DNA from: Escherichia coli
Lineage (GTDB): Bacteria > Pseudomonadota > Gammaproteobacteria > Enterobacterales > Enterobacteriaceae
Strand: one strand, 5' to 3'
Length of the DNA: 64,000 bases
Assembly: GCF_001677475.2 (NCBI RefSeq)
Contig: NZ_CP015229.1
Positions 59,788 to 60,067 of this stretch are shown here, one piece after another (the stretch's first letter is position 1; each line of letters opens with the position of its first letter). The position numbers were made by a program, and so were the translations under genes. The notes below the pieces were generated by a model that saw only the letters and a program-made list of their open reading frames with translations, did no database searches and was not told the DNA's origin.

Positions 59788-60067
59788 AAAGATGTATTCC
59801 CAGGTTTCAGGTTTTACTTAGTAGCAAATTGTTCTATAACTTACTCTAAGTGATGTTTACAACATCGGAATGGTGCATCACCGGTACCTGCCATAGGGCT
59901 CACTACGTAGCCCAACCAATAATGCACCATTCCGGTATTGTAAAAAATCAGCACTGAGGCTAACCTGGCCTCAAAACATAGCCCGAAAACTGAGAGTTCC
60001 TAAAAAAAACAATCTGTCCTCACGTAATAAAAATACGCCAGTGCTGCAATACGCCTCTATCAAATGT

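Follow-up and report, generated by a model that had tools for sequence, protein, structure and literature searches.

Organization of the prophage late region

The window, i.e. the whole stretch of 64,000 nucleotides that was analyzed, consists of E. coli chromosome and a lambdoid prophage whose late operon lies on the minus strand. Read along this strand, the late region starts with the gene for the antiterminator Q, followed by genes for a Rce1-like membrane protease and a truncated DNA methylase, and then by tRNA-Thr and tRNA-Gly. Next come about 300 nt of non-coding DNA, which contain the three elements designated here as A, B, and C, then an ORF of unknown function (phrog_5091), TerB, DUF3927, and STnc100. 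After STnc100 lie iraM, which is on the opposite strand, and the genes for holin and lysozyme. The assignment of Q is also backed by the RefSeq annotation of a near-identical locus in strain GB089. Hairpin B, the main subject of this analysis, shares its orientation with Q, the tRNAs, and the holin gene. The features needed below are as follows.

62498..62869, minus strand: gene for antiterminator Q, which sets the late operon and its direction (Pfam Phage_antitermQ, E = 3e-51)
60146..60221, minus strand: phage tRNA-Thr(UGU) (ARAGORN)
60068..60142, minus strand: phage tRNA-Gly(UCC), the constant upstream partner of hairpin B (ARAGORN)
59942..60046, minus strand: element A, a structured trailer after tRNA-Gly (repeat search, RNAalifold)
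59856..59944, minus strand: hairpin B, the whole structured RNA element (repeat search, fold, covariance model R1, pair counts)
59922..59934, no strand assigned: ATGCACCATTCCG, part of the 5' arm of the RNA stem
59896..59913, minus strand: apical stem-loop GGGCU-ACGUAGUG-AGCCC (RNA fold)
59886..59895, minus strand: 3'-side bulge UAUGGCAGGU with unpaired UGGCAGG (alignment A1)
59866..59878, no strand assigned: CGGAATGGTGCAT, part of the 3' arm of the RNA stem
59762..59787, minus strand: intrinsic terminator C, ACCGCCACACCUGGCGGU followed by U8 (terminator scan)

Other features of the window set the scene. The DNA methylase gene (60400-60885, minus strand) encodes the N-terminal part of the protein only (Pfam N6_N4_Mtase, profile positions 1-105 of 221); since related prophages carry a full gene of ~349 aa at this place, it is a decayed gene. 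STnc100 (58167-58342, minus strand, 93.7 bits) belongs to the same late operon, where it precedes the holin gene, and a 2026 preprint links it to the PasD sRNAs. Two core E. coli sRNAs, DsrA (10782-10868, minus strand) and RseX (19204-19293, plus strand), show that the window covers the dsrA-yedS region of the chromosome and the prophage next to it. At 29240-29421 (plus strand), isrK (72.9 bits) stands immediately before a C4 antisense RNA (59 bits); the two constitute an immunity/anti-Q RNA pair of the P1/P7 or Gifsy type, so that the window may contain another regulatory region of phage origin.

A perfect inverted repeat is the core of a long RNA hairpin

An initial annotation of this DNA reported a perfect 13-bp inverted repeat with a 43-nt spacer, located between a terminator and the tRNA genes. 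Reading of the sequence bears this out: the two arms are present at 59866-59878 and 59922-59934, GGGCT (59896-59900) and AGCCC (59909-59913) lie inside the spacer as claimed, and the repeat is flanked by a terminator-like site at 59787-59762 and by the tRNAs at 60068-60221, all on the minus strand. Within the 64-kb window it is the sole perfect inverted repeat of at least 13 nt with a spacer of at most 100 nt. Dinucleotide shuffles of the window contain a mean of 0.24 such repeats, with one or more in 17% of the shuffles; thus, the 13-mer repeat by itself is only weakly beyond chance and is not decisive. What identifies it as a real feature is its conservation and covariation in related prophages. 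The repeat forms the center of a larger structure, hairpin B, a conserved RNA hairpin of ~89 nt that carries no annotation. The 13-bp core that was first noticed is just a fraction of a stem of ~28 bp.

A repeat search extends the arms to 30 nt each (5' arm 59944-59915, 3' arm 59885-59856). In the window the main stem consists of 9 bp, a 1x1 mismatch (C59935/A59865), and then 20 bp. RNA of the minus strand folds with -49.7 kcal/mol, compared with -25.4 +/- 3.6 for shuffled sequences (z -6.8), and none of 200 shuffles folds as well; the fold of the plus strand is weaker (-42.1 kcal/mol). The stem is capped by the apical stem-loop, which in most relatives reads GGAGAU-UUUGU-AUUUCC or AGAGAU...GUCUCU, and is interrupted on its 3' side by the bulge. 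The bulge is conserved as sequence: the unpaired motif is UGGCAGG in the window and UGRCAGG across the hairpin B family, and several of its unpaired columns (U, C, G) are invariant or almost so in an alignment of 54 distinct hairpin B sequences (A1). In the same alignment the sequence of the stem is conserved beyond what pairing needs. The main stem measures 26-28 bp in all 54 variants, and RNase III substrate hairpins are characterized by a dsRNA helix of ~20 bp or more. Counted across the variants, the longest unbroken helix is 12-19 bp; the fold of the window has 20 unbroken bp.

Pairing is conserved and is selected in the RNA of the late-gene strand

Conservation of the structure was assessed by counting pairs in A1, using a model with a 28-pair main stem (9 pairs and, beyond a 1x1 mismatch, 19 more), an apical hairpin of 6 pairs, and the 3'-side bulge. 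A second alignment, A2, mixes sense and antisense matches and was excluded from the counts. Across the 54 variants 96.4% of the cells form standard pairs; shifting the 3' partners by 1-3 columns lowers this share to 37-55%. Six pairs are altered on both sides, among them column pair 25/92 (24 sequences with G-C, 23 with A-U), and at 17 main-stem pairs the variation is one-sided, by way of G·U. The apical helix is 93.5% paired, and two of its pairs differ at both partners. In 500 column shuffles the observed pairing values are never reached, and RNAalifold independently recovers the same main stem. Pairing is thus kept with compensatory changes, and this covariation support is real, though it comes from few independent events, the A1 sequences being close kin with a mean column identity of 80% and most of their variation being one-sided, by way of G·U.

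The same alignment indicates which strand is selected. When a Watson-Crick pair undergoes a transition, one strand acquires a G·U pair and the other an A·C mismatch; without selection at the RNA level, the two outcomes would be split equally between the strands. Read as minus-strand RNA, the main stem contains 1190 Watson-Crick, 277 G·U, and 45 mismatched cells; read as plus-strand RNA, it contains 1190, 21, and 301, respectively. G·U occurs at 25 pair positions on the minus strand versus 5 on the plus strand, or at 20 versus 4 when only G·U pairs seen in at least three sequences are counted (p = 0.0015). Covariance model R1, built from the hairpin B family, likewise scores the window at 92.8 bits on the minus strand and 47.8 bits on the plus strand, and loci in general score 84-118 bits in the sense and 31-51 bits in the antisense direction. 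Because the G·U pairs are biased to the minus strand, hairpin B appears to be selected as an RNA read in the direction of the tRNAs and late genes. That it is an RNA structure under selection is very probable.

This strand preference is the main argument against one proposal of the initial annotation, a protein-binding site, taken here as one in double-stranded DNA, for which an even division of the wobble pairs between the strands is predicted. The broader class of DNA-level explanations includes, besides a palindromic protein site, a cruciform, a single-strand initiation hairpin, and a recombination linker at a module boundary. Extrusion of a cruciform is conceivable with arms of this length, single-stranded DNA also allows G·T pairing, and similarity between phages stops right after the 3' arm of hairpin B, which is therefore a mosaic joint. 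However, the element keeps a constant orientation and a fixed position relative to the tRNA on the transcribed strand, and the sizes of its arms and spacer are unlike those of operators. Taken with the wobble counts, these features make an element acting as DNA very improbable.

The alternative suggestion of a tRNA gene remnant also fails. The initial annotation was right that the repeat lacks a tRNA fold: the two real tRNAs (60068-60221) are all that ARAGORN and the Rfam tRNA model return, and the Rfam model has no match at 59856-59944 at E values up to 10. There is no cloverleaf, no T-loop, and no likeness to any tRNA model. The hairpin does adjoin tRNA genes, and 9 nt of its 5' arm (UACCGGAAU, 59929-59937) are complementary to the T-arm/acceptor region of tRNA-Thr (60156-60164), but this match exists in the window's variant only and is probably due to chance. 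A chance palindrome, for which the expectation of 0.24 perfect 13-mer repeats per window might speak, is ruled out by the conservation of the hairpin with compensatory changes in hundreds of prophages. Consequently, a decayed tRNA gene or a chance palindrome deserves almost no credence. In sum, the repeat, its location, and its lack of a tRNA fold stand as first reported, and the two interpretations attached to them do not.

Distribution among genomes and prophages

The check proposed in the initial annotation has a positive outcome: the motif recurs in related prophages, both in E. coli genomes and in IMG/VR viral contigs. The 211-nt region containing A and B is matched in 384 of 5426 complete E. 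coli genomes (~7%), mostly with 72-79% identity. It occupies a median of one place per genome and up to five, none of them on plasmids. In strain GB089 (NZ_CP013663.1) the element is present in two different prophages, at 1490843-1491053 and 2470890-2471489. The region is also matched in two deposited phages, and a degenerate pattern for the 3' arm finds hairpin B in at least 120 IMG/VR viral contigs. When the 3'-arm pattern was run over one genome per bacterial species, it gave eight hits in unrelated taxa, none of which was confirmed by the covariance model. The element thus appears to be confined to E. coli prophages, as far as an exact 3'-arm pattern can show; more diverged relatives would escape it.

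The association with the tRNA module is close. Of 132 loci, 125 could be evaluated, and in 121 of these hairpin B follows a tRNA-Gly(UCC) gene of the same strand at a distance of 100-127 nt. In all 14 annotated E. coli loci the hairpin is on the coding strand of the late region, after the tRNA cluster and before the accessory/lysis genes. The covariance model finds one copy per prophage locus and one in the 64-kb window. Hairpin B is therefore conserved, strand-specific, single in each prophage, and tied to the tRNA module. Such a distribution does not fit a dispersed repeat of the REP/BIME, ERIC/IRU, or MITE kind, since there is one copy per locus, always beside the prophage tRNA-Gly.

Hairpin B is distinct from annotated RNAs, terminators, and genes

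Hairpin B was compared with the 4227 models of Rfam 15, which include STnc100, AgvB, AsxR, IsrK, and C4, with membership defined as a score at or above the gathering threshold of the family. It matches no family; the lone matches at this position are chance matches to eukaryotic miRNA-precursor models, with 16.5-27 bits against thresholds of 70-117. Six related loci gave no Rfam family either. AgvB and AsxR, considered as candidates in their own right, were set aside for want of a model match, and 24B_1 has no match in the window with up to three mismatches. PasA, PasC, and PasD2, taken from E2348/69 at their published coordinates, show no above-chance match in the window. The Pas sRNAs thus lack sequence likeness to hairpin B, and PasA and PasC lie between esterase and holin genes, antisense to the late operon. 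Among the papers searched for the arm sequences, none contains them. The hairpin B family appears to be undescribed, although the type of element, a structured cis-RNA in a phage operon, is familiar; with an alignment, a structure, and a covariance model in hand, it is a candidate new RNA family.

The hairpin is not an intrinsic terminator, as its stem is followed by CAUCAC... and not by a U-run; a terminator scan of the vicinity flags just 59787-59770 and 59974-59954. A small protein was also considered. An AUG within the stem opens a frame of 29, 15, or 5 codons, depending on the variant, and nothing in these frames is conserved in A1.

RefSeq annotates an 86-aa "hypothetical protein" (WP_000904532.1) at 1386-1646 in each of two related loci (L003 and L004), in a frame that runs through hairpin B and the next terminator. 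In loci of the E24377A type the start of this kind of CDS falls in or just upstream of the hairpin. The frame is not kept in other variants, and the CDS across hairpin B is probably a spurious gene call.

An extended stem like that of sib was also considered, in which read-through RNA would form an even longer helix between hairpin B and element A. The 3' flank of hairpin B, GCCUCAGUGCUG, is complementary to the 3' portion of A (CAGCAC...GAGGC) in some of the variants only (z -1.6 to -2.9); this pairing is absent in the window (z -0.6) and is lost without compensation where the 5' flank differs. It is thus not general.

Elements that flank hairpin B

Directly after tRNA-Gly lies element A, an unannotated, branched structure of ~100 nt. 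Its closing helix pairs CAGCACUG (60046-60039) with CAGUGCUG (59956-59949) and is followed by U6 (59947-59942). In an RNAalifold consensus the closing helix is kept across two groups whose internal sequences are unrelated, and one locus (L100) carries a compensatory change within it (GCACCG/CGGUGC). Because it combines a helix with a U-run, and because the helix is kept across types and with compensation, A looks like the terminator of the tRNA unit, or, more broadly, like an unusual branched terminator or trailer RNA.

Elements A and B are intimately joined. The last three U residues of the U6 run are the first bases of hairpin B, so that the B stem starts within the U-run of A, and the resulting UUU/AAA pairs are held in 51-53 of the 54 variants. 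The gap between A and B is short, single-stranded, and AU-rich. On its other side hairpin B is separated from terminator C by a linker of about 68-69 nt. This linker is of two unrelated types and is not conserved across variants. A terminator akin to C lies downstream of hairpin B in other loci as well, for example at 1350-1331 in L009.

A possible role in processing of the late transcript

Hairpin B would be made within the transcript that carries the prophage tRNA-Thr and tRNA-Gly. For the tRNAs of Stx2a phage, transcription in lysogens seems to depend on a promoter located between tR' and the toxin genes (PMC7547250). In L009, tRNA-Thr is preceded by a promoter-like site whose upstream region is AT-rich; its counterpart in the window is weak. 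With hairpin B flanked by the terminator-like element A and by terminator C, our guess is that in a lysogen the tRNA transcripts would mostly end at A. During lytic growth, again as a guess, Q-modified polymerase would read through both A and C, and hairpin B would be made mainly then.

A near-perfect dsRNA stem of ~28 bp could serve as a double-strand-specific processing and stability signal, most likely as a site for RNase III. For the E. coli enzyme, a stem of this length and perfection is a classic substrate, with the whole within the size range that is cut, and phage RNAs with known RNase III sites include the lambda N leader, sib, and the transcripts of T7. Cleavage would sever the tRNA/leader portion from the downstream late mRNA and, by defining the ends of the two products, determine how stable each of them is. 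RNase III processing sites in the Q-dependent late transcript of lambda are the subject of Daniels et al. (1988), going by its title as cited in PMC7547250. On this basis we tentatively favor hairpin B as an RNase III-type dsRNA processing/stability signal dividing the tRNA/leader from the late mRNA that follows, a reading to which we give somewhat less than an even chance. A point against it is that roughly one variant in three has an unbroken helix of no more than 12-15 bp. The part assigned to RNase III itself is deduced purely from the shape of the hairpin, and it too falls somewhat short of an even chance.

The close junction of A and B lends itself to another explanation, in which RNase E or RNase P, in processing the tRNA/trailer, cuts in the single-stranded AU-rich linker between A and B, and hairpin B shields the downstream RNA. 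The hairpin would then lie at the very 5' end, with at most three unpaired bases, and would block 5'-end-dependent decay by RNase E. A precedent for shielding a 5' end from RNase E in this way is the 5' stem-loop of ompA. The start of the stem within the U-run of A, the retention of the UUU/AAA pairs, and the short AU-rich gap are all in keeping with such a role, as is the fact that in all loci hairpin B precedes accessory and lysis genes. However, a stem of 28 bp far exceeds the known 5' stabilizers. Furthermore, in the window and in many other loci a strong terminator follows within 70-170 nt, leaving little downstream RNA to shield in unmodified transcripts. Protection of a 5' end by the hairpin is therefore rather unlikely.

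The conserved UGGCAGG bulge and the near-invariant stem sequence exceed the needs of a generic dsRNA site and could indicate a specific protein or RNA partner. Hairpin B might thus be a stable or trans-acting ncRNA, either excised alone or, together with the linker and terminator C (~185 nt, 59944-59762), as a small RNA derived from the tRNA trailer, which acts on a host or phage partner through UGGCAGG or through the linker. Both the conserved unpaired motif and the retention of stem sequence beyond the needs of pairing would suit this role. Downstream, the window has a terminator whose U8 tail is of the kind typical of Hfq-binding sRNAs, other loci have a terminator there too, and the moron site downstream of Q carries sRNA genes (PMC4104026; bioRxiv 10.64898/2026.05.13.724894). 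Nevertheless, no promoter is evident directly upstream of hairpin B, the B-C linker is of two unrelated types, and there is no likeness to PasA-D, AgvB, AsxR, STnc100, or 24B_1. We consider an ncRNA of this kind unlikely, if a little less so than 5'-end protection. A more specific version, in which hairpin B is excised as a stable ncRNA along with the phage tRNAs and binds a particular host or phage factor through its stem and UGGCAGG, is less likely than either. Examples would be titration of RNase III or of another dsRNA-binding protein, or service as the precursor of a short regulatory RNA.

The unannotated hairpin is carried by ~7% of complete E. coli genomes, many of them from pathogenic or livestock strains, and occupies the region of lambdoid prophages where toxin and accessory genes are inserted and expression of the late genes is controlled. 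Should hairpin B indeed be a processing signal, the release of phage tRNAs from a long late transcript would be explained, as would the way in which the stability of the downstream lysis/accessory mRNA is set. If instead it is an ncRNA that binds a factor, it would influence the timing of lysis, the use of tRNAs, or anti-phage defense. Hairpin B does not represent a new principle.

Comparison with known systems

As a putative processing signal, hairpin B most invites comparison with the RNase III hairpins of other phages, such as lambda sib, the lambda N leader, the Q-dependent late leader, and the R1.1-type sites of T7. Like hairpin B, these have a long, near-perfect dsRNA stem of at least about two helical turns with a small internal loop or bulge, and they are non-coding and located between functional units. 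The sites in the lambda late leader belong to the same operon, i.e. the late operon downstream of Q, but there is no sequence likeness: the lambda late leader (L140) has no match to model R1, and its fold contains no comparable 28-bp hairpin. In addition, lambda is without a tRNA module, whereas hairpin B is tied to one.

A second group comprises RNAs derived from tRNA trailers and spacers. The 3'ETS of glyW-cysT-leuZ and the stable RNAs species 1 and 2, encoded with the tRNA cluster of T4, are released by tRNA processing, and RNAs derived from tRNA spacers can act as sponges. These share with hairpin B that they are structured ncRNAs co-transcribed downstream of tRNAs; they differ in being host or T4 RNAs whose sequence and shape are unrelated to those of hairpin B.

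The sRNAs of the moron site (STnc100/PasD, PasA/PasC, AgvB, AsxR, and StxS) are found in the same neighborhood, between Q and the lysis genes, but have no sequence or model match to hairpin B. Their ends are formed by terminators; hairpin B, by contrast, is internal and has no U-tail. Moreover, PasA/PasC and AgvB/AsxR are transcribed against the late operon and hairpin B along it. The put-type cis antiterminator RNA of HK022 consists of two adjacent stem-loops downstream of a promoter and confers resistance to terminators without a protein factor. Hairpin B is a single long hairpin, and the prophage in the window has a Q gene.

A counterpart in position occurs in prophages of the PhiR47_1 type, a type represented in 536 of 5426 E. 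coli genomes. Here the order is likewise tRNA-Gly, a first hairpin, a long hairpin, a terminator, and holin (phage PhiR47_1; L138, 1205-1500, minus strand). These prophages carry the same tRNAs, but neither BLAST nor model R1 detects A or B in them. Their long hairpin shares with hairpin B the ends of the stem (GAAUG...AUCG / CGAU...CAUUC) and the GGCAGG bulge; its stem is ~7 bp shorter on both arms, and its apical part differs. The PhiR47_1-type hairpin could be a distant homolog of hairpin B or a product of convergence; homology is plausible. The presence of a long hairpin at the same position in both types of prophage suggests that a long stem is what this position needs.
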